Shown here: in pieces, positions 5,986 through 64,000 of the stretch
Position numbering within the stretch: position 1 is the first letter of the stretch
Layout: every line of letters begins with the position of its first letter
Origin: a virus
Length of the DNA stretch: 64,000 bases
Reading direction: 5' to 3' (one strand)
Virus record (IMG/VR): IMGVR_UViG_3300020171_000018
Span: 21,803-85,802 of that record
Translations under genes and position numbers: made by a program
The notes under the pieces: model-generated
What the model was told of the DNA's origin: nothing
Seen by the model: only the letters and a program-made list of their open reading frames with translations
Database searches by the model: none

Positions 5986-6124
5986 TCCCTTCAAACCCCT
6001 TCTAACACCCCCTGAAAACCAGTACCGCCAATAGTGGCCCAGGCTATCAGCGGCACCGGAAGGAGGGTCGCCACGAAGCGGCGAGGATGAATGCTAAGTA
6101 GGCGCTACTGCCATTGGCTCCTTC

Positions 6125-22670: not shown

Positions 22671-22710
22671 GTCAGCCTCCTGCCAGCTCTGTTAGCTCCA
22701 CCCGACTTTG

Positions 22711-42953: not shown

Positions 42954-42954
42954 A

Positions 42955-48263: not shown

Positions 48264-49874
48264 CTAGCCTCCAAAGGATAAAGGCAGGTCACCGGGGCCA
48301 TCTGACTGAGCTCTATGCCTGGGAGCCTGTAGTCCGGGGATGTTTGGCACCACGACAGACTGGGCCTCTGCTTGAGCGGGTTGCTCACCGCCAAACTGCG
48401 AGCCCGACATGACCGCCTCTTCCTCGGCTCTGACGGATGCATAAGCCCTGTTCAAGTCATTCGACAGCGCCCCAAGGGTGCCGCCTCTGGGGATGTACCT
48501 GCTCATGTCTCGATGCCCGCGAGCTGGCCTTTGGGTCTCTGCTTGCCTAGAGGTCATTGGCCCAATAGTCCCAAGGGTGGGTACGGGGCTGGGCAGGGCG
48601 GGCTGGTTGGCCCCCATACCCGGGAGCACATACGCTCCCTGAGCTCCTTGGCCCCTGTAAGCGCCTCCAATACGCCTGTACTTTGCTATCTCGTGGGTCA
48701 TCCAAGCGGGCCTCTCGTACTTAATCATCCCCTGATGCTCGGAGTCCATGAAGCCGTAGATGTACTTGACTCGCTCCTCCCTAGGAATGGCGTCGAAGGC
48801 GGCCTTGGCCTGGCGCAGAGTATAGAGCATCTTCCTGCGCTCAGTGACCTCGAACATTGGGTCGGGGGGTTTGAGGAAGATGATGTCGGACCTGATGCCG
48901 GCTTTGTTGATATCTGAGCTGTCCTGCACTGTGCAGACCAATAGGATGCCACGGTGGGCCACGGTGTTTTGTAGCTCCTCAAAGGTCAGGCCAAGTTGGG
49001 ACATTGAGCGTTTGGAGTTGATGTAGAGTGAGGCGTCGTCCAGAATCACGGCGCACCCAGCGGGAACCTGCTGCATGAGAGGCCCCAAGAGGTGGTGCGG
49101 GACGGCAATCATGTTAGGCGGGAGAGGAATGTTGGCACTGGGGCCTACCCAGAATATCGGGTAGCCACCGTGCTTTTGCTGCCACTTAGCGGCCAAGGGT
49201 CCCGCAGCGAAGGTTGTCTTCCCGGAGTTTCTTCTGCCCACGACGAACACGGAGAGGTACTCACTATTCAGGGCCTCCTCCAACCAGGCTGGCCACTGTT
49301 CCCCAACCGAGCCTATACCGCTTAGCCCCCCCATCGGGTTGACACCCCCAGCTATCCCAGCAATGGACGCCACAATCTTGCTCTGAATAGCCGTGGCTAT
49401 CTGGGTGATGCTGGACTGGAACCCCTGCCTGAGCCCCCGACCTACGGCGTCCCCGAGGAACTTGCCCAAATCCAGGCCGGAGAACGGGCTGGTCTCCTCA
49501 TGGGTCCCTTCATGGATGGGTTGGGCTGGGGCTGGGAATTGGCTGGGCGTCTGGGGTCCCACCTGAGGGCCAGAGGGCATCATGGACTGGCCCCCGGGCA
49601 TCATCGTCTGAGGCATGGTCTGGTAGGGCTGCTGGTAGGGCTGTAGCGCGTTCTGCTGGTAGGGTTGCATGGCGTTCTGCGGGGCGTTCTGACCCACGCC
49701 GCGACGCTTGCGCCCACGGACTGGCCCGGGGGCCTGCATGAAGGGCTGCTGGGGGCCTTGGGACTGACCCTGGGGCTGAGCTGGCATCATAGGGGTTGGG
49801 ACTGGGATGTAGATGATGTCGGGAGTCAGAACCTTTCTTCGAGTGGTTGCCCTTGTTGTCTTTCTCCTTGGCAT
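48264..49874 (-). CDS. FtsK/A32/Zot-like P-loop ATPase, putative genome-packaging ATPase, with Q/P-rich tails
   Basis: VVGRRNSGKT, VILDDA, AHRG...TVQ. Confidence 0.7.
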   Translation of the reverse strand: MPRRKTTRATTRRKVLTPDIIYIPVPTPMMPAQPQGQSQGPQQPFMQAPGPVRGRKRRGVGQNAPQNAMQPYQQNALQPYQQPYQTMPQTMMPGGQSMMPSGPQVGPQTPSQFPAPAQPIHEGTHEETSPFSGLDLGKFLGDAVGRGLRQGFQSSITQIATAIQSKIVASIAGIAGGVNPMGGLSGIGSVGEQWPAWLEEALNSEYLSVFVVGRRNSGKTTFAAGPLAAKWQQKHGGYPIFWVGPSANIPLPPNMIAVPHHLLGPLMQQVPAGCAVILDDASLYINSKRSMSQLGLTFEELQNTVAHRGILLVCTVQDSSDINKAGIRSDIIFLKPPDPMFEVTERRKMLYTLRQAKAAFDAIPREERVKYIYGFMDSEHQGMIKYERPAWMTHEIAKYRRIGGAYRGQGAQGAYVLPGMGANQPALPSPVPTLGTIGPMTSRQAETQRPARGHRDMSRYIPRGGTLGALSNDLNRAYASVRAEEEAVMSGSQFGGEQPAQAEAQSVVVPNIPGLQAPRHRAQSDGPGDLPLSFGG

Positions 49875-49964
49875 TGTGGTTCTCCTTGCCTATCGGGTTG
49901 ACTCCTAATGATGCTAAATTGATACCATAGGTTGGGGCTATGCATTCAAGGAGGCGCCACTTTT

Positions 49965-50186
49965 ATGAACAAGTCTGCCCTGCGTGAAACCATCAGGAAA
50001 TCCATTGCCTACCAGTTCAACACAACCTCTGGGCACGGTCTTAGCTCGGCTCAAGTTGCAACCCTTTCTACCTACATCGCTGCTGGTATTGCTGATGCCC
50101 TTGCCGATCAGTTGGACGCTGAAATTACTCAGGCTTTTGAGCATCACCTAGCTGCTTATGCACATACTCGGCTCCAAGTCCGGTAG
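49965..50186 (+). CDS. Hypothetical protein
   Basis: AAGGAGG upstream; opposite strand to neighbours. Confidence 0.45.
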   Translation: MNKSALRETIRKSIAYQFNTTSGHGLSSAQVATLSTYIAAGIADALADQLDAEITQAFEHHLAAYAHTRLQVR

Positions 50187-50568
50187 CGTTGAGTTGTAGA
50201 TAGGACGCAACGGCAGTTCGGTCAATCAACACAACCGCTTGCTCGGTTGTGAGTCCACAGGCATCTTTCAGAAACTTGAAATCAGCGGCCATCTGATAGG
50301 CTGCCAACGAGGGTGCTACCCCCTTGTCTGCTAGACTCATTACTCGAAGCCGCCCAAGTGCCAATGGTGCCGTTGGAGGATAGATTCCAGGGGGGACACG
50401 GAGTTCCCCTCCGTGAGTCACCATTGCATCCACCAATTGGTGCAGTGGACTAGCGCAGTAGTCGCGGGTACCACTACCACCCTTTGTATCTTTGGGAGTC
50501 AACCAGATAGGCAAAGGGTTCTGGTCCCCACCACTTACTGCTTCTCCTTGGGGTTCGGATGCGTCCAT
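50125..50568 (-). CDS. Hypothetical protein
   Basis: AAGGAGG RBS. Confidence 0.5.
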   Translation of the reverse strand: MDASEPQGEAVSGGDQNPLPIWLTPKDTKGGSGTRDYCASPLHQLVDAMVTHGGELRVPPGIYPPTAPLALGRLRVMSLADKGVAPSLAAYQMAADFKFLKDACGLTTEQAVVLIDRTAVASYLQLNATGLGAEYVHKQLGDAQKPE

Positions 50569-50569
50569 G

Positions 50570-52252
50570 CTAACCCTCCTTGTTGCTATCATCGTTGCTA
50601 TCATCATCCACCAGAGTAGGCACGATGTCAACCACGGCTGCTACGGGAGCGGGACTCTTGGGCTTGTCTGGGGGCCGCACTACTACCGCAACCCCGCTGC
50701 CCCCGCTGCCCCCATCATCGGGCCCATTCTCTCCGACCCCGCTGATGTCGTCACCCCCACTATCACCCTGAGCCTCCCCAGCCCCCTCTACCCCCGCTCG
50801 ATTCATGCTGTTTTCAACCGCCTTGTAGGTGAGGTCAATCCCCTGTTTGACCGAGGTGAGCCAAGTGGTGCCAGCGGGGGTTATGAGCACGGCAGCAACC
50901 GCAGATACAGTGTCAAGGGCTTTCGCATCCATTGTCGCAGAGGCCAGCACCCTGATAAACGGGTTGTCCAAGAGCTTCTTGACCTCGGACAGCAGCACTC
51001 GGACCTCATCCACGGTGAACTCGTGCAGGATGACCTCGAGCTCACTGAGGCCGGGCTTCTGCGCCTGGAGGTCAGCATAGAGTTTCTGTACAAACTCGGT
51101 GGGCCTGAGAGAGAGGGCGTTCTTGAGCCAGTCCCAGTCGGCGGCCTTGAGCAGCCCCATGAGGTCAGTGCCCTTGAGGCGGGTCTTGAGCTTGTTGAGG
51201 AGTTGAGCCGTGTCCACTGGGGCCTCCTGGGTTGTAGGCTGCATTGTAGGTTGCACGGGTTGGGGTGCCCGTGGTTGGGGCCCTGACTGTGGGGCACCAG
51301 CGCGTTGTGGCTGCCCAGGGCCAAGGGCGGGCTGCTGAGGCGCCCCACCAACTTGGGGCTGGGTCGGAGCGGGCGGCTGCTGGGGTATCAGGGCTGTAAG
51401 CCTGGCAACTAGTGGCTCTAGTTGCTGTGTACGTGCTAACTCCATTACGAGGTCTATCAGGCTAGTCTTGTGCGTGTCCTCCGAATCGCCCGTACCCGTT
51501 CGCCGCACAAAGCCATACTTTTCAGCCCGCGCTATAGCCTTGTCCAACTTGTCCAGTGGGTCTTCATCCTCCTCGTCACCTTCCTCCTTGGGGGGTTTTA
51601 TGTTAAACGCCTTGTAGAGTCTGGCCGTGGCTACCTTGTCCCGTATAGCAGGGTTGCTGTCCAACATGGCAAGGGCGTCGTCAGTGGCACGCTCATCCAG
51701 ACGTTCTTGAAAGGTCTTGGGCTTCTCGGCCTCCTTTTTTCGGGCCTCTCGGATAGCCTCATCCGGGGTCTGCCACTTGGGGGCGCCGGGAAACTTGTAC
51801 CCAATCACAGGCCCGGTGTAGGCGGCGCTCTTGGCATAGATTACATACTCGCCCCCGCCGAACTGCGGGACCCAGTGCTGCTCGATGTCCTCCCGGCTGG
51901 GCATGTCGGAGACGTACTCCCCAATTGTGACCAAGGAGACGCTGCCAAGTCGAACAGGTTTTCTAACCTCGAACTTGGGCACGGGGAAGGCTTCACTGCG
52001 GGAGCGGCGAATGCGCTCTATTAGGCGAATGTTGTTGAGAACCTTGCGGTTCAGCTCCCAGTTGAAGTCGTCACCACTATTGACTACATACGGGAGGGAG
52101 CGGTAGGGGGCGAAGCGATCCCCCGAACCCTCCGGGGCGGCACCATCTTCGGATTCGTCCAGTTCGTCGGGGTAGAAATCGTCGCCGGGCTTGATGAGAC
52201 GGACGTGTTTGCCACGGGAGAAGAGTTTTAGAGGGTTGAGTGAGATACCCAT
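50570..52252 (-). CDS. Large helical protein with Q/P-rich linker
   Basis: 560 aa; AGGAGGT RBS; upstream of the ATPase. Confidence 0.7.
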   Translation of the reverse strand: MGISLNPLKLFSRGKHVRLIKPGDDFYPDELDESEDGAAPEGSGDRFAPYRSLPYVVNSGDDFNWELNRKVLNNIRLIERIRRSRSEAFPVPKFEVRKPVRLGSVSLVTIGEYVSDMPSREDIEQHWVPQFGGGEYVIYAKSAAYTGPVIGYKFPGAPKWQTPDEAIREARKKEAEKPKTFQERLDERATDDALAMLDSNPAIRDKVATARLYKAFNIKPPKEEGDEEDEDPLDKLDKAIARAEKYGFVRRTGTGDSEDTHKTSLIDLVMELARTQQLEPLVARLTALIPQQPPAPTQPQVGGAPQQPALGPGQPQRAGAPQSGPQPRAPQPVQPTMQPTTQEAPVDTAQLLNKLKTRLKGTDLMGLLKAADWDWLKNALSLRPTEFVQKLYADLQAQKPGLSELEVILHEFTVDEVRVLLSEVKKLLDNPFIRVLASATMDAKALDTVSAVAAVLITPAGTTWLTSVKQGIDLTYKAVENSMNRAGVEGAGEAQGDSGGDDISGVGENGPDDGGSGGSGVAVVVRPPDKPKSPAPVAAVVDIVPTLVDDDSNDDSNKEG

Positions 52253-52489
52253 GAGAGTAGTGACCTCCTATGCGGGCATTTGGGCCAGTTGGCGGGCGGA
52301 CTGGGGTTACTGTACATAGACACCCTCTATTGTGGTTCTGCTCTGCGGATGCACTACCAAACGCTCGGGAGCACTACCAGTCTGCCGACCACGGCCTACA
52401 GAAGGCCCGGACAGACGCAGCAGATGCGCTCAGGGCGTGGGAGGACGCTAAGGCAGAGTTTGCCTTATACGAGGCCTTTTGCAAAACGC

Positions 52490-52690
52490 CTAAGAAACCC
52501 TAACCTCTTTTGCGGCTTCGTACCTTCTCGCCAAGGCCCACAACCATCTGCTTGGGTCCTGCACGTCGTCAGTGTGGTAGTGCAGGTGAATCTGGTCTCC
52601 GAATACCTCCCTGAGTTTCTCGAATAGCAGGGACTCCTCTAACGGAAGTAACGCCTCTTTGTTACTGTTGAAGTGGAAATGTACATCCAT
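52490..52690 (-). CDS. Hypothetical protein
   Basis: AAGGAG RBS. Confidence 0.5.
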   Translation of the reverse strand: MDVHFHFNSNKEALLPLEESLLFEKLREVFGDQIHLHYHTDDVQDPSRWLWALARRYEAAKEVRVS

Positions 52691-52850
52691 TGGCTACTCC
52701 TTTCCTTTCACTACTTCTGCCCAGCAGTACCTCTATTGTACCCCACTTGACAAACGGTTTTCTAGAGGGGCGCATCAAGGTAATGTACAATAATTGACTT
52801 CCCTTATAACTGAATTGACCCGTACCCTATGGCTAGTATATCATGGTTGC

Positions 52851-53351
52851 ATGAATGAAAAAAGACGTGGCCGCCCACCACGTCAAACAAAACTGGGGGA
52901 ACCGCCTCCTGAGTCCGCCTACGGAGTGGCTCTGAACTACGGCCTGCTGGAACGGATCACAAAGCATTCCCAATCCAGCAGACCCAGTGAGCAACCTCGC
53001 AACACCCCCTTGGGGCGCCATACGGTGTTACAGATACTTTGGGCACTCATGCAGGGCGCTAGGGGCTACGAGATACGACATAGCCTCGGTCTGACCAGTA
53101 GATTCTCCATAATCAATGCTAAGGTTTGGTATTACAACCACCCAGAGAAGATTAGAGAGATGCAGCCCTACTGGGAGATGCGAGACCCAGATACTCACAA
53201 GGTGGCATATCGGTGTATGGTATGTGGCTCCATCAAGGCCACTAAGCTGGAGGTGGAGGCGCACTGCGTCAGAGAGGTTATTCCAGAGGCGTACCTGACG
53301 CTCCACTGGCCGTTCACGCCTGAGGAGACTGAGATTTTAGGAGGGATGTAG
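52851..53351 (+). CDS. AT-hook/HTH/C2H2-like regulator, probably leaderless
   Basis: RRGRPP and CMVC...HC; TTGACC-18-TATCAT ends 6 nt before ATG. Confidence 0.6.
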   Translation: MNEKRRGRPPRQTKLGEPPPESAYGVALNYGLLERITKHSQSSRPSEQPRNTPLGRHTVLQILWALMQGARGYEIRHSLGLTSRFSIINAKVWYYNHPEKIREMQPYWEMRDPDTHKVAYRCMVCGSIKATKLEVEAHCVREVIPEAYLTLHWPFTPEETEILGGM

Positions 53352-53518
53352 CTATGTGGAATGTAGCTATGTGGTGGGCTATCAGAGTCGGTGCTGTCCT
53401 TGGCATATTCATTCTTGCTACCCTGCTTTCAGTTGTATTGAGGGTTCTGGGGCAGGCTGCTAGCTATCACATTACCCATCGGAAGCACATTCTACGCTAA
53501 CGCATAGGAGGCCCAGAA

Positions 53519-53869
53519 ATGACCACTCAGCCGCAACCCCCAGCACCCCAGCTCAAGCCTGAGATCATCCCGGCGGTCACGGGTGATGTCAGGGTGCCCC
53601 TCTACGCCACGGGAGCGGGCGGGGAGTTTCTGTCTCTCTATATTATTGCCTACAGGAACCCGGAGACCGGTGAGCTGGGGCCACACCCACAGACCGGCCA
53701 GTACCCGATGGTGTGTCCTGACTGTAAACGGGGGGAGCTGAAAGGCGGGGAAATCTATGGCCCCAACAACCTACGAAGGTGGGTGTGTGGTTGGTGTGGG
53801 ATAGCATGGCAGACTCGGAACGGGATGTACAAGGGCCCAAGGTATGCAGTCGGGCTTGAGAGTTGCTAG
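53519..53869 (+). CDS. Zn-ribbon protein
   Basis: CPDC...CGWC; AGGAGG RBS. Confidence 0.6.
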   Translation: MTTQPQPPAPQLKPEIIPAVTGDVRVPLYATGAGGEFLSLYIIAYRNPETGELGPHPQTGQYPMVCPDCKRGELKGGEIYGPNNLRRWVCGWCGIAWQTRNGMYKGPRYAVGLESC

Positions 53870-53887
53870 AGAAGGAGAGGGGAAACG

Positions 53888-54097
53888 ATGCCTACGCTAG
53901 GTGAGCAAAGGGTGAGGTTGGACTTCAACCCGTCCGAGGATACGCGAGTTGATGTGTTCAAGCAGCTCACCGCCCAACTAATTGACCATTGTGAGTTGAT
54001 GAAGAGCCAAGGGAGGGACGCACGGCTTTGCGCCCTGGCACAAACGGCCTACGAGGAAGCCGCCATGTGGGCCGTAAAAGCTGCTACTTCGCCATAG
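53888..54097 (+). CDS. Acb2/Tad1-like helical hairpin protein (putative immune-signal sponge)
   Basis: FNPS...R..ALAQTAYEEAAMWAVKA. Confidence 0.65.
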   Translation: MPTLGEQRVRLDFNPSEDTRVDVFKQLTAQLIDHCELMKSQGRDARLCALAQTAYEEAAMWAVKAATSP

Positions 54098-54109
54098 ATC
54101 GCAGGGGAT

Positions 54110-54146
54110 GGGCACCGTTGCGTAACTATGGACTAGTACCCCAAAG
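54110..54146 (+). repeat. Orphan IS6-like end; inverted copy of 39202-39238
   Basis: Begins GGCACCGTTGC, similar to the IS26 end GGCACTGTTGC. Confidence 0.85.
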
Positions 54147-54592
54147 CTTGCTAGGGTCAAACTAACACATGGAGGAGGGTAAGATGGCATCAGGCAAGAA
54201 TCAGGCCAAAGAACAGACAGAGGCGACACCCAGCAGGGCAGCCAAACAACTAGTGGCTGACTACCGCTACCTTTTGTCAACTCCAGCTATTGGAACCGAT
54301 GCCTTGGAGCTGCTCAAGTTGCTTGTGGAAGACGCAAAGACGGACCGTGCCTCTAGGCTTTGGTAGAGGGCGCTCCCTCTATAGCTGCGGCAACCTCTTT
54401 GTACACGGCTCCGAATTGGCGAAGAAGGGCTCCAGTCGGACTTGGTTGACATGACTTTGGGTCATAGCTACCCTCTAGGCGGAATACGTCTAGGGGGTTC
54501 CGATGGGAAAGTGGAAGCCAACCCGAATACCACGTCCAAAAGGCGGTTTCTGGGTAGAGTTGGTGGAGGCATGGCAAGTGGAACGAGCTAAC

Positions 54593-55456
54593 ATGGCCTA
54601 TTGGCAGGTGACATGCAAGTTCTGTGGGGGGACCCGCGTGGTCAAGTACGGCACCTATCACGGCGTACAGCGGTTCCTATGCCGGAGCTGTAACCGAAAG
54701 TTTGCCGACAACAACGCCCCTCCGCACATGCAATTCCCTACTGCTGCCATAGCCTCAGCCCTGAACCAGTTCTATCAGACTACCTCGCTGGATAAGATTC
54801 GTACCCAGCTAGACCTAGACCAGCACCCCTACCCAGGCCACGCGACGGTGTACGAATGGGTAGTAAAGTACACCAAGAAGGCAGTTGAGGCTCTTAGCGG
54901 AGTAACGGTTAACACTGGCAAAATCTGGGTGGCCGACGAAACGATGCTGCTGGTGGCAGGCAGCAAGACCAAAGAGGGGTCAGAGAACACAGCTTGGTTC
55001 TGGGATGTCTTGGATGAGGACTCTAGGTTTCTTCTTGCCTCACACTTGTCTCAGACTCGGACCACCCGCGACGCCGAAACTCTTTTTCAGCGGGCCGCAG
55101 AGGTAGCTACTAGGCCGCCTAGATTCATAGTCACTGATAAGCTGTCAGCCTATTTGGATGGGATTGAACGGGTATTCGGAGGTGACACCATTCATATCCA
55201 ATCTCATGGGATGCGCTCTAGTACCAATATCAACTTGGTGGAGAGGTTTCATGGCACGATTAAGGACAGAACCAACCTGATGCGGGGGCTTCACTCGCTT
55301 GTGACGGCTAGGTTCGTAATGAGTGGATGGGCGATTCACTACAACTACATGAGGAAGCACCAAGCGCTAGGGGGCAAGACACCCGCTGAGGTGGCGGGTG
55401 TGGAGGCACCGTTTAAGAGCTGGCTAGAAGTAATACAGCTAGAAGGGAGAGTCTAA
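54593..55456 (+). CDS. IS6-like DDE transposase with N-terminal Zn ribbon
   Basis: CKFC..CRSC; WVADET, VTDKL.AY, N.VERFHG..K.R. Confidence 0.9.
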   Translation: MAYWQVTCKFCGGTRVVKYGTYHGVQRFLCRSCNRKFADNNAPPHMQFPTAAIASALNQFYQTTSLDKIRTQLDLDQHPYPGHATVYEWVVKYTKKAVEALSGVTVNTGKIWVADETMLLVAGSKTKEGSENTAWFWDVLDEDSRFLLASHLSQTRTTRDAETLFQRAAEVATRPPRFIVTDKLSAYLDGIERVFGGDTIHIQSHGMRSSTNINLVERFHGTIKDRTNLMRGLHSLVTARFVMSGWAIHYNYMRKHQALGGKTPAEVAGVEAPFKSWLEVIQLEGRV

Positions 55457-55833
55457 TGGCGTTAGCTGACAAAGATGTTCTTCGTAGAATGCGGAGGCCC
55501 CAAACGGTACGAGACTATGGGGAGCTGGCGGAAGTTCGCACCAGAAGGATAGAAAAGCACTTAGGGCTTGCTGTAGTCCTACCCGACGAGGAGTTGCTTG
55601 AGATATACAGAGACTTGGAGCGCGAAGCCCAGGCCAATAAGTGTGAAGCCTGCAACAAAGAATCTGGTGCCGCATCGAAGGAACCCGCCCAGTGGTCGGT
55701 TGGGAGTAGGTTCATCAGGAAGACCACTAAAGTGCTCAACGTGAAGGCCACCGCGCTCAATTTCCTCAGCCTCTTTCTCAGGCACGGCAATGGCAAAGGC
55801 AAGGATACAAGCTCCAATAAAGTTAAACACTAG
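55456..55833 (+). CDS. IS passenger hypothetical protein
   Basis: TAATG coupling to transposase. Confidence 0.5.
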   Translation: MALADKDVLRRMRRPQTVRDYGELAEVRTRRIEKHLGLAVVLPDEELLEIYRDLEREAQANKCEACNKESGAASKEPAQWSVGSRFIRKTTKVLNVKATALNFLSLFLRHGNGKGKDTSSNKVKH

Positions 55834-55945
55834 CCCAACAAAGGTGAACCAAGAGGCTGAGTCTAGGTGGTGCAGGTGAATCACAAGCGCATTCTAGGGC
55901 AGCTAGGGAGAGGGGAATAGCTAATGTCCGCCATTACTGATGTTA

Positions 55946-56257
55946 TTATCGAGATGGCTCGTGACCTTCGTCGTCGGGAAGTAGGGCAAGAAGAATGCGT
56001 TGATTGTTCTCCACAATCAGGTCTACCAAGGACTCCACGAACGCAACCTGAATACCCACCTTATTGGCGGGTGGGGCTTCGAGGAGGGCGGCTATCGCTT
56101 CAAGTGCTTTTGGGGTGCCGCTCTCGCCGTGTGTGGCCGCTTCACCCTGGGAGACTGTCTGTCCGAATCGAGCTCTCGTCAGTTCAGCGAGGCGTTCACT
56201 CAAGGCATCTCTGTTTAGTAGAAGCCGTATCAAGGCTTCCTTTTCTTCGGGTGTCAT
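55946..56257 (-). CDS. IS passenger hypothetical protein (leaderless)
   Basis: TTGACA in the right TIR-17 bp-TACAAT, 6 nt before ATG. Confidence 0.65.
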   Translation of the reverse strand: MTPEEKEALIRLLLNRDALSERLAELTRARFGQTVSQGEAATHGESGTPKALEAIAALLEAPPANKVGIQVAFVESLVDLIVENNQRILLALLPDDEGHEPSR

Positions 56258-56325
56258 GGCTGCATTGTAAAGGGCACCACGCTAGGTGTCAACCAAGTCC
56301 GACTGGAACCCTGTAAGACCCCCAC

Positions 56326-56355
56326 TTGACAATTGACCGATAAACCCCTTACCAT
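56326..56355 (+). promoter_or_regulatory. Promoter of the structural operon
   Basis: TTGACA-18 bp-TACCAT. Confidence 0.55.
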
Positions 56356-56386
56356 AGGGTTGTCGTTTGGCCCGCACTGGGGCCAC

Positions 56387-56435
56387 AAAGGGACCGAGCA
56401 CCAGCGAGAAGGTGTTGTCGGTCCCTTTTCGTTTG
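56387..56435 (+). terminator. Terminator/attenuator-like hairpin in the operon leader
   Basis: AAAGGGACCGA / TCGGTCCCTTT 11-bp stem followed by TCGTTT. Confidence 0.5.
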
Positions 56436-56559
56436 TGCTCGAAAGTATCGGACCCAAGACTCAGGACTCAGGGCAGTAGAGCCAAAGCGAAACGACAGAT
56501 AAGCCAGACGCTCGTAAGGCTGCCCCAGTAGAACCATAATCTACTTGGGAGGTGTACGA

Positions 56560-57066
56560 GTGCCTACGGTTACACTTATCAAGGGAAACCCCGCGAACCC
56601 CAGACGCCACAGGCGCCACTACCGCAGGAACCCCGGAGCCCTCGCGGCCGCAACCAGATCCCTACCCGAATTGGGCGATGCCGTTGCGGGCGTGCTGGGC
56701 GCAGGCGTGGTCCTGACCGTCCCCGCGATGGTGATGAAGACCAGCACGGGCTGGACAAGAGTGCTGGTTGGCGGTCTCATTGGCTTGGGCGGTGCCTGGG
56801 CGACACGCCAGTTCGTCAACCCCAAGGCTGGCAATGCATTTGGGCTGGGCGCTGCTGTCATAGTGCTGGGCCAGGCAGTGGGCGTCGCCACCCAGGGCAA
56901 GTGGGGCATCCCGCTCACCCTGACCGTCGTGCCGCCAATGGAAGGCCGACTCTCCGCCCCCACTCCTCAGCCGACACTGATGAGTGGCATGGACAGGAGC
57001 GTGGGTGCCTTCGTGGATACCACATACGGGGGCGAGAACAGCGCCCTGAACCCACCGTTGGTCTAG
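56560..57066 (+). CDS. Virion membrane protein with Arg/His-rich NP-repeat N-terminus
   Basis: GGAGGTG RBS; KGNPANPRRHRRHYRRNP then three hydrophobic segments. Confidence 0.7.
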   Translation: MPTVTLIKGNPANPRRHRRHYRRNPGALAAATRSLPELGDAVAGVLGAGVVLTVPAMVMKTSTGWTRVLVGGLIGLGGAWATRQFVNPKAGNAFGLGAAVIVLGQAVGVATQGKWGIPLTLTVVPPMEGRLSAPTPQPTLMSGMDRSVGAFVDTTYGGENSALNPPLV

Positions 57067-57176
57067 GGGTATCGGTCTAAGGGCCGGTCTAACCTGAACG
57101 TGGAATACCCTGAACATGGAACACCCTGAACAGGCCCGGCTAGGAATAGTCGGGAAGTAGCAGGAAGGAGAAACCG

Positions 57177-57713
57177 ATGTCGTGCATAGTACCAGTCTCG
57201 GAACTCAGCATTGATGCCATACGGAACATGAAACTCAAGGCTCGCCGGATGCTCACGGAGCTGATGGTGCGGGCTGGCAAGGTGCAGGCCCCCAATCAGG
57301 TAGCCGTGCGGGACATTCGCGCCAACGATGACCTCACTATCGCCAACGGCGCAGATACCAACGAGTTCATCACGCCGGCTCTGGTAGCAGCCACCAACCT
57401 CACCTACGTCAACGCGCTGCTGGCTGCCAACAGGTATCTGGCCATTTACGCCGTGGCGATTGACTCCACGCTCCCCGCCCCCATCACCATGCTGTTCCAG
57501 GTCGGCCCCGGTGGAACCACCACTAGGGCTTACGTGGACCTCCAGAAGCTCTACGTGCATGATGAGTTCGTGGGCTACCTGGATGACCCGGTGGTGTACC
57601 AGCCCTCCGACCAGATGTTCATTGCGATGGAAATAGGTCGCACTGACGCAGCCGGCCAGAGGGTGGTCTTGATCGGGTACGTGGCTGAGCCTATGGGCCA
57701 GAGCATCAGCTAG
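57177..57713 (+). CDS. Putative major capsid protein (single jelly roll)
   Basis: 178 aa; N-terminal helix then alternating beta pattern; strong RBS; C-ending codon bias; first soluble gene of the block. Confidence 0.55.
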   Translation: MSCIVPVSELSIDAIRNMKLKARRMLTELMVRAGKVQAPNQVAVRDIRANDDLTIANGADTNEFITPALVAATNLTYVNALLAANRYLAIYAVAIDSTLPAPITMLFQVGPGGTTTRAYVDLQKLYVHDEFVGYLDDPVVYQPSDQMFIAMEIGRTDAAGQRVVLIGYVAEPMGQSIS

Positions 57714-57901
57714 ACCCAAAACCTAGAACCAAGGTCTGTCGGCTTTGTCTCCGGGCCGCGGTGTCCATACGGCTCCTAGGGGGTGACACGGGGAACACCC
57801 CCTAGAACCCCCAAAAGAAAAGACGGGGGGAATCCCCTGGGAGCCTTGACGGGGAGCAGTACCAGAATCTAGGAGCAGACAAGCAGACAAGGAGCAAGAA
57901 C

Positions 57902-58354
57902 ATGCCACAGTCGCAAAGAGTGAACAGAGTACTCAACATCCTGATGGGATTCAGGCTCTCATACCGTTTGATACCCGCCGTAGCAGCCGGTGCGGCAACT
58001 CCGGGTGTACCAGTCACTTCTGGCGCTCCCGGCGTCGGCGCAGACGTGAACCTCGTGGCAGCCAAGGGCATCGTAGTTGACTTCTGGGCGTGCCAGTTCA
58101 ACTTGGACACCCAGGGCGGTGCCATCCAGATAATGGAACTTCATGTGTGGCAGGGAGCGGCGGTCTGGGCCATAGGAACCCAGATTTCATCGTTCCGCTA
58201 CCACCCGTCACTGGTCACTCCCAACATCGGGGCCATCCCGGTTGGGCCGTACCCGGTACGGCTCTTGGCCAACGCCCAAGTGCAGATGGCCGCAGCTGGC
58301 GCGGCGGCCAGGGTGCTGGGTGTGTCCCTCCTGTATGGGGTGAACTTCATCTAA
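57902..58354 (+). CDS. Putative minor capsid protein (beta-sandwich)
   Basis: Ala/Gly/Val-rich beta pattern. Confidence 0.5.
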   Translation: MPQSQRVNRVLNILMGFRLSYRLIPAVAAGAATPGVPVTSGAPGVGADVNLVAAKGIVVDFWACQFNLDTQGGAIQIMELHVWQGAAVWAIGTQISSFRYHPSLVTPNIGAIPVGPYPVRLLANAQVQMAAAGAAARVLGVSLLYGVNFI

Positions 58355-58446
58355 CCCAAGGCATGTGGGGCTGGATGAGGGCTCGAACTGGGGCTCTCAT
58401 CCAGCCAAGGTGTGTTACTCCAAAGAGTAAATAAGGAGAGAACACA

Positions 58447-58849
58447 AGTGACAAGAGTGACAAGCAGGAACATTGCAGGACTGGGGCTCTGGTGTAGGGT
58501 CAGGTCTCTCTTTGACAAGCCCTTCTTTGACAAGCCCTCGCTCAAGACTAACGACTTGGAACAGAAATGGGTGTGCGTGGTCCCCATTGCGGCTCTGGGT
58601 GGCGGACTGGGGGCCGTTTGGCTTCCTCTTCGGGACATGCGACGGGAGCAACTGCCGGACAACAGGCCCTCACGATGCGCCAAGTATGCATGGAGAGCGA
58701 CAACGGAGCACGAGGGTGTCTGCTATAAGGTGTGTTGCTTCTCAGATGAGCCCGCTCTTCTCCAACCCGCAGACTATGTTTGGGTGATTGAGAGGCCCCC
58801 AGTACCTGTCGCGGATGCCTCTTTGGCGGCAGTAGGGGCTGGCATATGA
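58447..58849 (+). CDS. Hypothetical protein
   Basis: AAGGAG RBS; ATGA overlap with next gene. Confidence 0.45.
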
Positions 58850-59754
58850 GCAAGGGCAACAGGATGATTGACTACACCGACAAATCCACGGCGGCCAAAA
58901 TCCCAGCAACCTTTGATAGGCACAACAGACTGCTGGAGAGCTTCACCAAGTTGCAAGAGGTGCAGGAATACTACAAATTGGGGCAGCAAGCATTGGAGCA
59001 GGGTCTTGGGGTGTCAATTTGCCACCTAGGGTGTGGGATTTGCTGCCGGGTTAATGTGCCTATCGCAATGGGCGTGGAGGCTCGGAACATCATCTCTTGG
59101 GCGCTTGGTAGAGGCCCGCTGTTCCTTGAGGGGCTTTTGGACAGATGCGAGAACTGGCTCATTAGCGCAGACGGCCCAACTCATGCTAGGGAAGGGATAA
59201 TCGTAGGTATCATTCCTCGAAAGATACTTGGGGAGTTCCAGACTCTACAAGGGTCACAGTGTCCGTTCCTCAACCCCGACACCACTTGTGTGATCCACGG
59301 AGCACGCCCTATTGTCTGTCAAGCCTTTGGTGTGACCCGTGACCCAGCCCCTATTTGCCCAAGGCCACTTGGGTCGGGGGAGCGTCGAGACCTCATGGCC
59401 ATCATTTCAGGCCCGTCCGTGGATGCTCTGAGGCGCAAAGTCCAACTGATGCGACAGGCGGCCAGTGAAGGGAATCCAGCCTGGGGTGCCAGCGGGCTCC
59501 TGCCGACAATGCTCTTGGCCGCTGGTAGACCAGAGAGGCTAAAGGCACTCATAGCCGAAAACCGCATACCCTCTGCCAAGCTCCTGATGGTAGCTGGGGA
59601 GTATCACGGGCTACTTTGGCAGGACCAGTTGGACGGGGCCAGACAGGGGGTGCCCGGGGAGCTACTCATTGAGCACGACAAGGGCCTTGAAACAGACGGC
59701 ATAGACAGGCGGGACCTGGAGAGGGCCAAGCAGGAGTTCAGGCAACTTGTGTAA
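58846..59754 (+). CDS. YkgJ/CxxCxxCC-family Fe-S/Zn cluster protein
   Basis: CHLGCGICC...CPFL...CVIHGARPIVC. Confidence 0.85.
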   Translation: MSKGNRMIDYTDKSTAAKIPATFDRHNRLLESFTKLQEVQEYYKLGQQALEQGLGVSICHLGCGICCRVNVPIAMGVEARNIISWALGRGPLFLEGLLDRCENWLISADGPTHAREGIIVGIIPRKILGEFQTLQGSQCPFLNPDTTCVIHGARPIVCQAFGVTRDPAPICPRPLGSGERRDLMAIISGPSVDALRRKVQLMRQAASEGNPAWGASGLLPTMLLAAGRPERLKALIAENRIPSAKLLMVAGEYHGLLWQDQLDGARQGVPGELLIEHDKGLETDGIDRRDLERAKQEFRQLV

Positions 59755-59763
59755 CAGGAGAGA

Positions 59764-60066
59764 ATGATGACCACCAGAAGCAAGAAACCTAAGCCCACTG
59801 GGGCTGCTCCGGCTGCTCCGGTTGCTCCGATTCCAGCTCCTACCCCAATCGTGGCTGCGGTGCCCGCGCCAAGGGTGCTAGAGACGCCAAAGGCAGAAGT
59901 GGAGGTTGGGAGCCTCGCCCCCGGTGACTCCTTCCAGCTCGATGGGAGGAGCTGTCGGCGTGAAGGGGGCGTGGGGGATGAGGTGGTGGTCTTGCAGATA
60001 GGGGCGGAAGGGGGTCACGGCGCCAGGTATTTCATGCAGGCGGATACCAAGGTCGTAAAGACATAG
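59764..60066 (+). CDS. Pro/Ala-rich small protein
   Basis: AGGAG RBS; AP-rich linker plus small beta domain. Confidence 0.6.
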   Translation: MMTTRSKKPKPTGAAPAAPVAPIPAPTPIVAAVPAPRVLETPKAEVEVGSLAPGDSFQLDGRSCRREGGVGDEVVVLQIGAEGGHGARYFMQADTKVVKT

Positions 60067-60096
60067 AAAATACGAAATCAGTCACGGAGGTGTGAA

Positions 60097-60747
60097 ATCG
60101 CTACGCTTACGTTCGCAAGATGGTTCGAACCTGCTCCCGTCCAAGCGGTAGTGCTCCCCGGAGAGAACATTGGAATCTACGTCTCCGGGCAGTACCAGTT
60201 CTACCGGGTGCCCTTTGTGGAGGCAATCCCGTCATCCCGGCAGATGACGCAGAACCTGGGCGTAGTGGGTGCAAACGCCTCCAGCGGCGGCGGCACCCCG
60301 ACGCAGATAACGGTGACGGACGTGCCCGATGGCTATTTTGGGCACTTCCGCTGGATGCCCATTGATGACGCCGAGATAGAGCTGTTCGAGAGCCTGAGCG
60401 TCGGACGGTACGCGACTCTTGGCACTAGGGGTCGGGTGAATGTGCAAACAGGGCTAGTGGACCCGACCTGGGCCTCCACCACCATTGGCGTGTTCGGCGC
60501 TCAGCGGTCTGCATTCATGCTGGCGTGGAACATTGCGGCCATTGGCCTGACCCAGAGCAGGATCAAGTTCTGGGGGTACAAGTATACCTTGGTGCCCTTC
60601 GCCCCGAGCTGGAATATCATCCTGCACAGGATTGCGTTCGCTCAGCCGACGGGTGACCTGACGGCGAGCATGACCCCGGAGCAGAAGAAGCAACTCGCTG
60701 ACTTCAGGGCGACGCTCGTTCCCGCTGAGGGCTTCACGGCGGCTTAG
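60097..60747 (+). CDS. Putative second capsid protein; probable ATC start (first canonical start is GTG 60151)
   Basis: Beta-rich; GGAGGTG at 60086-60092 precedes in-frame ATC. Confidence 0.5.
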   Translation: MATLTFARWFEPAPVQAVVLPGENIGIYVSGQYQFYRVPFVEAIPSSRQMTQNLGVVGANASSGGGTPTQITVTDVPDGYFGHFRWMPIDDAEIELFESLSVGRYATLGTRGRVNVQTGLVDPTWASTTIGVFGAQRSAFMLAWNIAAIGLTQSRIKFWGYKYTLVPFAPSWNIILHRIAFAQPTGDLTASMTPEQKKQLADFRATLVPAEGFTAA

Positions 60748-60817
60748 ACCTAACCCTGATGACCCTGAGGAGAGCCATAAGCCCAGAAACCCGGTAAAAG
60801 AACATGGAGGCGCTACG

Positions 60818-61198
60818 ATGACCATGCTAGTAACAGTGCCATCTAGGGACATAGTTGAGGCGCAGGCAGGCTCCAAGCTCAAGAATGGTGGCCTCATCTC
60901 ACTGATTGCAAACGCTACACCCCTGACGGTCTACACCATGCCGACGGGGCTGACGGCCAGGCTATGGGCGCTCGAGGTGTTCAACGGGAACGCCGCTGAC
61001 ACCATTGTCTCCATAGGCACGGGGTTGGCCCCGCTGGTGCTCGCCATCCCTAGGCTGTTTGTAGGCGCGGGCCTTCACGACATAATTCCGCTGCCCCCGT
61101 TCGAGTTCTCGGCCAACATTACGGCGGAGGCGTCGGTGGCAGGGGCCGCTCCCGCCAACGTGGCCGTGATTCTCTACGTCGTTAGCATCGGCGGGTAG
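60818..61198 (+). CDS. Putative minor virion protein (jelly-roll-like)
   Basis: VYTMP...LEVFNGN beta pattern; GGAGG RBS. Confidence 0.55.
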   Translation: MTMLVTVPSRDIVEAQAGSKLKNGGLISLIANATPLTVYTMPTGLTARLWALEVFNGNAADTIVSIGTGLAPLVLAIPRLFVGAGLHDIIPLPPFEFSANITAEASVAGAAPANVAVILYVVSIGG

Positions 61199-61254
61199 AG
61201 GGGAGCATTAGCCTCTCTACATTGAGGTGGTAGGTTGAGGCGGCAGGAGGAGCT

Positions 61255-61611
61255 ATGGGTCAGATAGAGATTGCCTCTTTTACGCTAACGGTTGCTGCGT
61301 CAACAGAGGCTACCGCGCGACAGAACGCCCAAGTTGCTGGCCGCATATTTGAGGTCGGAATCCATTGGCCGGGCGGGTGCAACGGGTTGGTGCGCGTGAG
61401 GGTCTCTCACGGCGCTGTACAAATCGTGCCACGAGACGGGGGGCTGGCGATGGATAATGTGCTGGCTCCCTACCAGGTGGATGAACCAATAGCCAGGGGG
61501 GAACCCCTAGAGGTGGTTGTCCAGAACACAGACGGGGCCTGGCCGCACACAATCACCGTTACTGCCTCCATTAGAAAGGCGGCCAGTAGCGCCGGTGGGG
61601 GCGGAAAGTGA
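61255..61611 (+). CDS. Putative minor virion protein (jelly-roll-like)
   Basis: IHWPGGC.GLV.V...N.D..WPHTITV. Confidence 0.55.
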   Translation: MGQIEIASFTLTVAASTEATARQNAQVAGRIFEVGIHWPGGCNGLVRVRVSHGAVQIVPRDGGLAMDNVLAPYQVDEPIARGEPLEVVVQNTDGAWPHTITVTASIRKAASSAGGGGK

Positions 61612-62096
61612 CGACTCAGACCACTCGACTCATTCCCGCTGTAGGAATAGGCTTCCCCGACTACAGCCGTGGCATCTCCACACAGACTGTGCCCCTGATT
61701 CGCAGCGCAGATGATCAGTACGCCTTTTCGGCCTGGGACTCGGTACTGATAGCCGATGGAGCAAGCACGATAATTGACATTCCAGCCACCCCCCTCATCA
61801 GTGGGGTTCCGACCGTCGTGATATGCTACGACTTCTACTCCTCTATGGACGCAGATGGGTTGTGTATGATGGTGGTGCAATCTGTCTCGGCGGCCCCGGT
61901 GGTGGTGTCACAGGTGGTACGCAAGTTGGGCTATGGGCTAGTGGAAGAGCACTTGGCTGTTGGGTATCCGTTCCAAAACATCATACGCCTCACGCTCCAG
62001 AACCGGACGGGTCAGGCGAGGACTTTCACTTACGGCGTCCTCGGCGTGTGGACGAGTAAGCAGACATTCAACCTAACGAGCACACCTGTACCATGA
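61608..62096 (+). CDS. Putative vertex/spike protein with GxPDY N-terminal motif
   Basis: IPAVGIGFPDYS. Confidence 0.5.
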   Translation: MTTQTTRLIPAVGIGFPDYSRGISTQTVPLIRSADDQYAFSAWDSVLIADGASTIIDIPATPLISGVPTVVICYDFYSSMDADGLCMMVVQSVSAAPVVVSQVVRKLGYGLVEEHLAVGYPFQNIIRLTLQNRTGQARTFTYGVLGVWTSKQTFNLTSTPVP

Positions 62097-62602
62097 TAAC
62101 TACTACAACACCCATCCCCGCTGTAGGAGTAGGCAGGCCGGATTACACGCAGAACATTGCGTGGGCGGCGGTGTCAACCCAGCGTGGGGTGCAGATACGG
62201 CAAACCTTTCATGCCTATGGCACCAATGTGGATACCTTGCCCTACCCTAACGCTTATGGAATGGTCGTGCCTTGGTACAACCACAGCAGCGCTGTGGTGT
62301 ATGTGGTGCCAGATGACCTTCCGGCACACATGCAGAGCCTCCACCTGACTACTCCGCGAGACGTGCTGAAAACCATCCAGCTTTTCCGTTTCGCTTCCTG
62401 GGCTGACTATCTCCTCTGGAATGTGGAGAAGCTGGAGGGTGAGCTCTGGGGGTATGGCGCGCTGACGCTGCGCTGGTCCAAGGGTATGCCAGCGGTGACG
62501 GGGAGGGTCTACGTGATAGGCTTTGGCGAGTTCTCCAACGAGGTGCACTTCGACGTGAGCATCCAGTTGCACAACATCCTGGAAGAGGTAGTGTATGGCT
62601 AA
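62093..62602 (+). CDS. Putative vertex/spike protein with GxPDY N-terminal motif
   Basis: IPAVGVGRPDYT. Confidence 0.5.
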   Translation: MITTTTPIPAVGVGRPDYTQNIAWAAVSTQRGVQIRQTFHAYGTNVDTLPYPNAYGMVVPWYNHSSAVVYVVPDDLPAHMQSLHLTTPRDVLKTIQLFRFASWADYLLWNVEKLEGELWGYGALTLRWSKGMPAVTGRVYVIGFGEFSNEVHFDVSIQLHNILEEVVYG

Positions 62603-62969
62603 GCCGGACGACCTCAACAAGCCGGGGCCTCCACTCAAGCCGGAGCCGGAGCCGGAGCCCAAGCCGAAGCCGGAGCCGGACAAGCCCTCGGAGCCAACGG
62701 GGGACGTGACATCTGTGGTGCCCACTGAGCGGATTTGGTACGAGGTGGGGAAGCCTGAGAAGCATGAGGTGGTGCATTTCCCCTCTGCCCCAATCGGCCC
62801 AGGTCTGAAGTTCTACCATGCCACGGGTGTCACGCAACTCCTTCTCCGTGAGGGACACAGCAAAGAGGCTACAGGTGCCTTTCTCATAGTCGTGAATCCG
62901 CGGGAGAGGGCACAGGAGAAGAAGGAGAAGCGGGAGAGGGAGAAGAGGGAGAAGGAGACGAAGACATGA
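62595..62969 (+). CDS. PE/PK-repeat protein
   Basis: KPEPEPEPKPKPEP and EK-rich tail. Confidence 0.6.
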   Translation: MAKPDDLNKPGPPLKPEPEPEPKPKPEPDKPSEPTGDVTSVVPTERIWYEVGKPEKHEVVHFPSAPIGPGLKFYHATGVTQLLLREGHSKEATGAFLIVVNPRERAQEKKEKREREKREKETKT

Positions 62970-63307
62970 CAGAGCAGCGAAGGGTAGTGGAGATAAACCC
63001 CCTAGCTCCTGTGAGCATTACGTCTCTGCCACTGATCACTAGCGCCATCAGCACGGTGGCGGTGGCTATCGTGACCACCGTGGTCCTGGTGGCAACGGCG
63101 GCTAGACGCTACGCCTGCATAGTCAACACGGGGCCGACGTGGGTGTACCTGGCCTTCGCCGAGCCGGCAGTAGTGGGGCGAGGTATCCCCCTGGCCCCCA
63201 ATGGGCTGGGCAGCTACGAGATAACGCTGCTGAACCCGTTTGTTGGCGCTGTCAACGCTATAGCTAATGGTGCGGCCAGCAGCGTGGCTGTAGAGGAGGC
63301 TACGTGA
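62966..63307 (+). CDS. Putative small virion beta-sandwich protein
   Basis: RRYACIVNTGPTWVYL...GIPL.P.G.GSY. Confidence 0.55.
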   Translation: MTEQRRVVEINPLAPVSITSLPLITSAISTVAVAIVTTVVLVATAARRYACIVNTGPTWVYLAFAEPAVVGRGIPLAPNGLGSYEITLLNPFVGAVNAIANGAASSVAVEEAT

Positions 63308-64000
63308 TGCTGCGAAACTCCGAAAAGAGCTTCACCGAGCGGCTATCCTTTTTGGGGACCGTCTCGGGAATCGTGGGTGCGCCGAACTTCCAGTGCGCCA
63401 ACCTGATAGGCCATGACCCCGACTTTTTTGAAGGCTACTGGGTCTATGTTATCTGGGACGCGGGTGGTCTTGGCGGCGCTCCCCAGAGGCAGCAGCTAGT
63501 CTGCACCGGGTATGTCAGCGCCACCGGAGACCTCGCGGTAGGTGCCTTTGCGCCTGCTATTGCCATAGGGGATAAAGTCCTTCTAATCCATCCGTCACTA
63601 GCAGCATCCATTACATCGGGTGTGGACATTAGCACCATACTCGCGCTCGTGAGCGCTGAGCTGACACTGGACGAGGACAATGGTGTGGTCACTGCCACTG
63701 GCTTGGGCACCGAGGACAACGTGTACATCAATGCGGGCCCTGCGGGGGAGTTCGAGCCCCGCGTGGTGAAGATAGACCTGGACCTCATGGTGGGTGGCGA
63801 TACCACGGTTATCAGATACTACGAGCGCCTGACGCCAGGCGTTGGATGGTGGCTCATGGATTATGAAGCTTACAGCGGAATAGACGGCGGCCTGCTGGAT
63901 GGCGTCAAGGCCATCTGCGTCGAGATGCAGCCCAATAGGTTTGGGGTGCGCGTCACGCTTGAGCAAACAGCGGGTGCCGTTAAGAACTACCAGTGGCAGA
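63307..64000 (+). CDS. Putative virion protein (runs off window end)
   Basis: Hand-translated open frame from TGATG overlap; C-domain paralogous to 11321-11833. Confidence 0.7.
   Translation, partial: MLRNSEKSFTERLSFLGTVSGIVGAPNFQCANLIGHDPDFFEGYWVYVIWDAGGLGGAPQRQQLVCTGYVSATGDLAVGAFAPAIAIGDKVLLIHPSLAASITSGVDISTILALVSAELTLDEDNGVVTATGLGTEDNVYINAGPAGEFEPRVVKIDLDLMVGGDTTVIRYYERLTPGVGWWLMDYEAYSGIDGGLLDGVKAICVEMQPNRFGVRVTLEQTAGAVKNYQWQ

Follow-up and report, generated by a model that had tools for sequence, protein, structure and literature searches.

A complete 86-kb groundwater virus genome with an A32/B204-type ATPase and no recognizable tailed-phage hallmark genes

Introduction

Large double-stranded DNA (dsDNA) viruses of prokaryotes are assumed to be tailed, and to our knowledge the genomes of tailless, membrane-containing viruses described so far from bacteria and archaea are all small, at about 10–31 kb. 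ATPases of the B204 and A32/P9 types are found in Turriviridae, Tectiviridae, Corticoviridae, Nucleocytoviricota and Halopanivirales. The latter have two major capsid proteins of the vertical single-jelly-roll fold, encoded in one operon with the ATPase, and include the SH1-like haloarchaeal viruses and Thermus phage P23-77 (Matshushitaviridae), whose genome of 17,036 bp carries ORF13, ORF16 and ORF17 within 2.7 kb on one strand. In SPV1 (Portogloboviridae), jelly-roll coat proteins lie over a membrane and a nucleoprotein coil. The virus infects Saccharolobus and has a circular genome of ~20 kbp (PMC8459092). IME1s are 21–28-kb dsDNA elements of Dehalococcoides without tailed-phage hallmarks; they encode a pI-like ATPase followed by small transmembrane (TM) coat candidates, a tyrosine recombinase and a lone Cmr6/4-like gene (bioRxiv 10.64898/2026.09.15.751708). 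Here, we analyse a stretch of 64,000 nt (the window) of the IMG/VR virus record IMGVR_UViG_3300020171_000018 and in particular its region 48264–64000, which contains an ATPase gene and a run of genes for small beta-rich proteins. The original prediction for this region was a large tailless virus with a putative single-jelly-roll capsid and tailed-phage-like replication genes. It had also stated that described single-jelly-roll viruses are much smaller, as the genome sizes of P23-77 and Portogloboviridae bear out.

With a modest preference, we read region 48264–64000 as the virion-assembly part of an uncultured groundwater virus that is non-tailed, has a B204/A32-type motor, is probably membrane-containing and carries spikes. 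A large tailless virus with tailed-phage-like replication is supported by a hallmark-free complete genome, an A32/B204/Zot-type ATPase and a membrane-rich gene block; the single-jelly-roll capsid of the prediction is still putative, and the gene order is unlike that of Halopanivirales.

The locus can be compared with each of these systems. In common with Halopanivirales are the inferred tailless design, the A32-like ATPase, small beta-rich structural proteins of 160–200 amino acids (aa) including an adjacent pair, and many small membrane proteins. In contrast to Halopanivirales, the ATPase gene lies on the opposite strand from the coat candidates, in a separate, divergent operon at least 7.3 kb away, and does not form a block with two major capsid protein genes. 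Compared to P23-77, the genome is much larger (85.7 kb) and encodes a family A polymerase and a large set of helicases and nucleases; the leading coat candidate, a 178-aa protein, has no sequence similarity to VP16 and VP17 of P23-77, which is little informative. SPV1 resembles the present virus in a lipid layer that may be covered by a shell of small proteins and in Arg-rich arms on membrane proteins, possible DNA condensers, but the genome described here has a candidate packaging ATPase, is four times larger than the ~20 kbp of SPV1, and is probably bacterial. With IME1 and the inovirus pI/Zot systems it has in common an ATPase of the same broad family, a tyrosine recombinase, the lack of tailed-phage hallmarks and, for IME1, the association with Chloroflexota. 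However, the ATPase has neither a membrane anchor nor an adjoining cluster of small hydrophobic coat genes, and the genome is three to four times larger than an IME1. Even to the B204 and A32/P9-type ATPases the identity is 13–16% only, and disordered P/Q-rich arms flank the ATPase domain within the 536-aa protein. Compared with the bacterial and archaeal viruses that have such ATPases, the genome is 3–8 times larger, and we know of no counterpart in A32/B204/P9 viruses of the conserved acidic protein of 500–560 aa encoded next to the ATPase.

Results

The window corresponds to contig positions 21803–85802, and coordinates are positions in the window unless marked as contig positions. The contig has 85,802 nt and its first 109 nt are repeated at its end, which gives a genome of ~85,693 bp. 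In IMG/VR it is recorded as a virus with direct terminal repeats and a CheckV completeness of 100%. The genome is complete, and it is dsDNA, either circular or terminally redundant. The gene map, derived from the coding pattern of G+C at the three codon positions (GC1/GC2/GC3), comprises ~125 genes, many of them with GGAGG-type sites upstream. About 75 open reading frames (ORFs) were scanned, including every ORF of at least 240 aa. All ORFs of at least 350 aa were run through Pfam, apart from c10176, which was compared with PHROGs only and found to be a DNA methyltransferase. Those unexplained by Pfam were also run through PHROGs, as were most of the unexplained ORFs of at least 240 aa.

In the ~75 ORFs, no match to terminase, portal, capsid, scaffold, protease, tail tube, sheath or tape-measure families was obtained with Pfam and PHROGs. 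Six-frame searches of the whole genome with Terminase_6N (PF03237) and Phage_capsid (PF05065) yielded nothing at E ≤ 10. Hence, the earlier statement that 64 kb contained no head-tail genes now extends, on the basis of profile searches, to the whole genome, and the proposed check of the whole contig for terminase and portal found neither family (Pfam, PHROGs and the six-frame terminase profile). The large terminase subunit is normally detectable by profiles even in very divergent phages. No family of this subunit was found in any ORF of at least 350 aa, so that this mark of the Caudoviricetes is lacking. Only four proteins of the genome carry a Walker A motif, namely DinG, UvrD, an AAA_24 recombination ATPase (33080–33862) and the 536-aa ATPase, and none of the top 50 structural matches of the latter (Foldseek, PDB and BFVD) is a terminase. 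No long helical ORF resembling a tape-measure protein was present either; a 966-aa protein consists of a threefold beta-helix repeat. As far as profiles can tell, the missing terminase is strong negative evidence, whereas for portal and capsid the evidence is weaker.

The 536-aa protein (48264–49874, minus strand) is an FtsK-HerA-superfamily ATPase of the A32/B204/P9/Zot type. Its Walker A (GRRNSGKT) and Walker B (ILDD) motifs lie in a P-loop domain (residues ~185–425) between P/Q-rich, low-complexity, disordered arms of ~190 aa at the N-terminus and ~110 aa at the C-terminus. The core is a small single domain of ~220 aa with the P-loop FtsK-HerA fold, like B204 and A32 and unlike the 600–800-aa proteins VirB4 and VirD4. 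The domain was modelled with AlphaFold2 on a 60-sequence alignment (predicted local distance difference test (pLDDT) 89.9, predicted TM-score (pTM) 0.85). When this model was compared with the PDB by Foldseek, the packaging NTPase B204 of STIV/STIV2 occupied ranks 1–14 (E 5e-8 to 8e-7), followed by HerA, TcpA, VirB4, the Zot N-domain and FtsK; B204 was ahead of Zot by three orders of magnitude. The top matches in BFVD were A32-like ATPases of giant viruses and poxviruses, ATPases of a virophage, of Corticoviridae and of the sphaerolipovirus PH1, and inovirus Zot. The A32/Zot-like ATPase of the original prediction is thereby confirmed at the fold level. A sequence search of the ATPase domain against the PDB gave no match.

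Further support for a packaging-type ATPase is provided by the region following Walker B. The motif AH(R/K)G-x6-TVQDSSD-x-NKAG-x-R is conserved in 13 homologues and corresponds to the packaging-ATPase family motif (R/H-x-G ... Q ... R); this region aligns with the packaging ATPase of P23-77 (hhalign probability 83.8%, E 8e-6). Family members gave weak Pfam matches to Zot (17 of 60) and Pox_A32 (4 of 60), and also to AAA and nSTAND3. Kyte-Doolittle analysis revealed no hydrophobic segment or membrane anchor in the ATPase, and therefore the B204/A32/P9 type fits better than pI/Zot. This small, soluble ATPase is the sole candidate for a morphogenesis or packaging motor of the genome, and, judged by its model, it is closest in structure to the B204/A32/P9 packaging ATPases of tailless membrane-containing viruses. 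As a separate observation, the homologue P0012 (441 aa) has a LAGLIDADG homing-endonuclease or intein-like insertion before Walker A, and LAGLIDADG_3 was matched in three of the 60 family members.

Directly upstream of the ATPase gene, an acidic, largely helical protein of 560 aa with P/Q-rich linkers is encoded (50570–52252, minus strand). It has no Pfam or PHROG family and may have an assembly or scaffold-like role. The gene downstream of the ATPase encodes a non-hydrophobic protein of 70 aa, and no cluster of small TM genes follows directly. Relatives of this operon are rare. A word-indexed search of 5.8 billion proteins gave only two ATPase homologues, while full HMMER against 1.84 billion cluster representatives gave 182 at E < 1e-3 and 11 at E < 1e-30. 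No relatives were found in IMG/VR with the ATPase (sequence and profile), the 198-aa protein described below, the 560-aa profile, PolA or the 178-aa profile. Likewise, 50,697 GenBank phage records contained no tblastn match for the ATPase or the 178-aa protein, and a scan of species genomes with the ATPase profile pattern was negative. A metagenome scan yielded three relative contigs (L003–L005) from the 0.1-µm fraction of well H14 of the Hainich aquifer, with a G+C content of 57.6%, as here.

The ATPases of the Hainich contigs are 39–41% identical to the ATPase studied here, and an acidic protein of 500–560 aa is encoded directly upstream, in synteny, in L003, L004 and L005. The ATPase and the acidic protein form a conserved operon. 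A Cys-rich, zinc-finger-like protein of 116 aa (53519–53869, plus strand), which heads the structural block and diverges from the ATPase operon, is found in the same arrangement in L003 and L005 (tblastn). A second conserved pair, outside 48264–64000, is encoded on the minus strand at 22122–23421 and consists of a 236-aa three-TM protein with the basic stretch RRNPRNPRNP (22711–23421) and a beta-rich protein of 182 aa (22122–22670). Three-TM proteins with such an RRNP-type stretch are common to the Hainich contigs (tblastn, L003 and L004), as is a 221-aa protein, and a beta-rich protein of 182–234 aa was recognized there by position and weak similarity (E 0.002). In the Hainich contigs, the neighbours of the ATPase operon are nonulosonic-acid and glycosylation genes and not the small-protein run, and because of these other flanks the run at 57–64 kb was not placed in the conserved core. 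The flanking genes (L003 1–8058 and 10785–18251, L004 3754–11601) encode NeuB, a class III aminotransferase, three MptE-like proteins, a phosphatase and a DUF4910 protein. This sugar-modification cluster is virus-borne in the Hainich contigs and absent from the genome described here.

The plus-strand block following the 116-aa gene is interrupted by an insertion sequence (IS) transposase of the DDE, IS240/IS6-like type (54503–55456, plus strand; Pfam DDE_Tnp_IS240, 3.5e-15). After a promoter-like site (56326–56355), it encodes in this order proteins of 173, 178, 150, 145, 302, 100, 198, 126, 118, 162, 169, 124, 113 and 237 aa. The 173-aa membrane protein (56545–57066) has an Arg/His-rich N-terminal arm, an isoelectric point of 11.6 and two hydrophobic segments. 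It is followed by the 178-aa acidic protein (57177–57713; AAGGAG site, GC3 0.78), in which an N-terminal helix precedes a beta-rich domain, by an Ala/Gly/Val-rich basic orphan of 150 aa without a family (57902–58354), and by a protein with hydrophobic segments (58412–58849). The 302-aa protein (58846–59754) has a CxxCxxCC metal-binding domain (Pfam PF03692, 1e-4). Further along lie the beta-rich protein of 198–217 aa (60097–60747; GC3 0.79, no family), two small proteins of 126 and 118 aa (60818–61611), the first with two hydrophobic segments (60818–61198), and two adjacent paralogues of 162 and 169 aa (61608–62602) with a common N-terminal IPAVGxGxPDY region (BLASTP 5e-4, hhalign probability 74%). 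The last two genes of the window (62966–64000) encode a hydrophobic protein of 113 aa (62966–63307) and an acidic protein of 237 aa, which has a paralogue at 11321–11833. The latter ORF (63304–) crosses the contig junction and stops at contig position 126, and the plus-strand block extends to about contig position 9659, 9.6 kb beyond the window.

The proteins of this block are acidic, with few Lys and Arg residues and a high content of Val, Ile, Tyr, Phe, Trp and Thr; in the 162/169-aa paralogues these beta-formers make up 38–39%. Hydrophobic segments were found in ~10 block proteins (Kyte-Doolittle), in agreement with the membrane proteins expected here. The predicted run of small beta-rich genes is real: from 57177 to the end of the window it has the coding GC1/GC2/GC3 pattern and many GGAGG ribosome-binding sites, and a strain of 98.8% identity differs at third codon positions in 62093–62602 (62311–62326). 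Apart from PF03692 in the 302-aa protein, the small structural-run proteins matched no family in Pfam, and they matched none in PHROGs. Among 15 small structural proteins compared by hhalign, only two pairs of paralogues emerged, both also seen by BLAST.

The 178-aa protein is the leading coat candidate. Only two homologues are known (87–89% identical), and a repeated search at E ≤ 10 added none. The ESM Atlas contains a model of the exact sequence (pLDDT 0.82, pTM 0.85). Its neighbours are three unnamed viral clusters of 184–200 aa (TM 0.79–0.89), of which the few labelled members are Uroviricota. As modelled, this shows that the 178-aa protein belongs to a recurrent viral fold family. Downstream of its gene, a GC-rich hairpin of 14 bp was noticed in the 188-nt gap (57770–57850, plus strand; fold z-score −2.0 for 57700–57910), which may be an attenuator or an RNA-stabilizing element behind a highly expressed gene.

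The second coat candidate of the original prediction was the 198-aa protein. Its ESM Atlas model is poor (pLDDT 0.32), and feature matches of 0.91–0.92 to viral clusters including DUF6711 serve as leads only; no mention of DUF6711 was found in the literature, and PF20458 gave nothing in the genome. The gene start is either ATC at 60097 or GTG at 60151. A GGAGG site (60086–60090) is followed six bases later by the in-frame ATC, and the first canonical start is the GTG 54 nt further on. Only a single TAG (60064) separates this gene from the 100-aa gene before it, which has the same reading frame. Another candidate coat protein is the 182-aa protein of the second conserved pair, whose gene has the highest GC3 of the genome (0.84). 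Sequence searches of the PDB were negative for all three candidates, of which the 178-aa protein was searched as a profile.

The basic stretches of the membrane proteins have parallels in the ATPase family. Arg-rich stretches ending in Asn-Pro (RRRKNP, RRNPHP, RRSNPRRNP, HRNP) occur at the N-termini of the homologues P0008 and P0015–P0017, and in the present genome in the 236-aa protein and, as RRHRRHYRRNP, in the 173-aa protein. The occurrence in both indicates a motif common to the lineage and not confined to this genome.

Beyond the window, the plus-strand block encodes several proteins of the receptor-binding type. Two ConA-like lectin proteins of 239 and 454 aa (Laminin_G_3, ~1e-12) are present, the smaller of which matches phrog_8510 'virion structural protein'. 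A beta-helix protein has 366 aa, and the 966-aa protein (contig 5085–7985) is composed of three beta-helix-like repeats of ~260 aa and a C-terminal lectin-like domain. The block also contains a three-TM protein with the metalloprotease motif HEAAH (HExxH; contig 4137–4664) and two type I dockerin proteins (2.8e-14 and 5.3e-8; contig 4675–5001 and 8256–9179), of which one has a TM segment at its C-terminus. A holin-like protein with two TM segments is encoded here as well.

The phage-like replication module centres on a fusion of UDG, exonuclease and family A DNA polymerase (26401–29037, minus strand; Pfam DNA_pol_A 2.9e-123, UDG, exo1). In addition, Pfam identified a DinG-like helicase (35922–37595), a UvrD helicase (42883–45081), ERCC4 (31964–32734), a PD-(D/E)XK nuclease (34290–35036) and the AAA_24 ATPase. 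All four assignments made earlier (PolA, DinG, UvrD and ERCC4) were recovered, and the nuclease is the protein described as Cas4-like. In full-length comparisons, PolA is 26–29% identical to its counterparts in Caudoviricetes, both cultured and uncultured, and for this reason 'tailed-phage-like replication genes' is a fair description. Inside the module, a 211-aa protein (31074–31709, minus strand) strongly matches the type I Thoeris inhibitor Tad4 (PF25186, 9.6e-32), which argues for a virus of bacteria and implies a host with Thoeris defence. The genome also contains two DNA methyltransferases and a tyrosine integrase/recombinase. A long minus-strand block, starting with the lineage-conserved membrane protein, encodes an 850-aa protein (14437–16989, minus strand) with a RelA/SpoT synthetase domain (Pfam, 1.4e-22) and a 726-aa protein (17626–19806, minus strand) with DNA polymerase III beta-clamp domains (Pfam).

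The host is probably a Dehalococcoidia (Chloroflexota) bacterium. The closest homologue of the ATPase, with 78% identity, comes from a Chloroflexota metagenome-assembled genome (MAG), and the ATPase profile matched seven of 401 sampled Dehalococcoidia genomes. The nearest species-genome relatives of the transposase are from Dehalococcoidales/Dehalococcoidia MAGs (42–46% identity). The weak host hint taken earlier from the style of the transposase has thus gained some support, and matching the IS to hosts pointed the same way. In one of these seven, a Dehalococcoidia MAG contig (L019), genes for small TM proteins follow that of a distant ATPase homologue (phmmer 4.7e-9). Nothing but the distant ATPase is common to the present genome and the Dehalococcoidia elements that hidden Markov models detected.

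Discussion

The favoured reading implies a tailless particle, in which one or more small beta-rich proteins would form a shell over or around a lipid layer holding the small membrane proteins. The shell protein could be the 178-aa protein, the 162/169-aa paralogues or the 182-aa protein. The ATPase would fill the preformed shell with DNA through a special vertex, and the beta-helix and lectin proteins would form host-recognition spikes. PolA, the helicases and Tad4 may have been acquired from, or be common to, the gene pool of tailed phages. That the element is a virus is supported by the receptor-binding-type beta-helix and lectin proteins and by Tad4.

Several points weigh against this reading. 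No coat protein was recognized by fold or family (Pfam, PHROGs, PDB sequence searches and one AlphaFold2 attempt), and the AlphaFold2 model of the 178-aa protein from its two-homologue alignment reached a pLDDT of 38 only, with no usable fold. The fold of the ATPase alone is no proof of packaging, because HerA, VirB4 and TcpA score similarly to B204 (VIA scores of 15.7 for HerA, 15.3 for B204 and 11.8 for FtsK). As judged from sequence, a very divergent portal or capsid protein might be among the unexplained proteins of 463, 560, 578 and 830 aa. The Uroviricota labels on the neighbours and feature matches of both coat candidates could mean that these are accessory structural proteins of tailed phages, although such labels may be the pipeline default for uncultured dsDNA viruses. 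Finally, matching contigs showed no molecule ends.

If the shell is not icosahedral, the virus might bud or be extruded as a filamentous, pleomorphic or spindle-like particle, a giant relative of IME1 in which the ATPase acts like pI/Zot and the coat is small and hydrophobic. The layout of L019 is that of IME1 (bioRxiv 10.64898/2026.09.15.751708), a tyrosine recombinase is present in this genome and in IME1s, and small hydrophobic proteins are numerous. We nevertheless regard this explanation as unlikely: the ATPase has no anchor and no small-TM cluster directly downstream, B204 outranks Zot in Foldseek, only the ATPase is common to the Dehalococcoidia elements, and 86 kb is three to four times the size of an IME1. 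A lytic, shelled particle would also better explain the abundance of soluble, acidic, beta-rich proteins, the large spikes and the holin-like gene. The same spikes can be read differently, since proteins of the beta-helix and lectin types commonly serve as tail spikes and one of them matches a PHROG virion protein. Together with the Uroviricota labels of the nearest Atlas clusters of the 178- and 198-aa proteins, the Caudoviricetes-like replication set and the large orphans, they are what a highly divergent tailed phage would show, its hallmarks lying beyond Pfam and PHROG profiles and its small beta-rich proteins serving as connector, tail or decoration proteins. Such a phage would have had to lose from view a terminase that profiles normally find, in six frames as well as in all ORFs of at least 350 aa; moreover, no Walker A protein is left over once DinG, UvrD, AAA_24 and the B204-like ATPase are accounted for, a long helical tape-measure-like protein is lacking, and ~10 structural-block proteins with hydrophobic segments are unusual in tailed phages. 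We consider this explanation slightly less probable still.

The least probable of the explanations considered here is a plasmid-like or other non-viral mobile element, which would use the ATPase for DNA transfer or partition and display the beta-helix, lectin and dockerin proteins as surface adhesins. Dockerin and lectin domains are indeed common in cell-surface proteins, the genome has a tyrosine integrase, IS elements and methyltransferases, and the coat protein is only a candidate. However, none of the ORFs scanned belongs to a relaxase, type IV secretion system or partition family, and the ATPase core resembles B204/A32 in size and not VirB4/VirD4. Tad4 is an anti-Thoeris family described from phages, long co-oriented blocks of small acidic orphans are virus-like, and the record is that of a virus with terminal repeats.

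Beyond the reading of the region as the assembly part of a tailless virus, we tentatively propose, with somewhat less than even confidence, an undescribed high-rank lineage of large (~86 kb), tailless, membrane-containing viruses of Dehalococcoidia with an A32/B204-type motor, a small-protein shell and a replication and anti-defence set in the style of tailed phages. The shell would possibly be built of single-jelly-roll or new-fold proteins. The genome is three to five times larger than in any bacterial or archaeal virus of this build described, and literature searches brought up no large bacterial viruses of the kind. If the proposal is true, the A32/B204-type architecture works for large genomes in bacteria and not only in eukaryotic giant viruses, and replication and anti-defence modules move freely between two great virus lineages. 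Dehalococcoidia, bacteria important in groundwater bioremediation, would then be hosts to two kinds of non-tailed viruses. Since the default of standard pipelines is to call contigs of this sort tailed phages, the lineage may often be classified wrongly.

Groundwater metagenomes of three studies contain identical pieces of this region, and no RNA data set was among the sequencing runs that contain it. One very small public run (2.6 million letters, 2021) yielded a contig of 1292 nt, which covers 61315–62606 with 98.8% identity at a depth of 56. Should this run come from a single cell or an enrichment, the host could be named from it.

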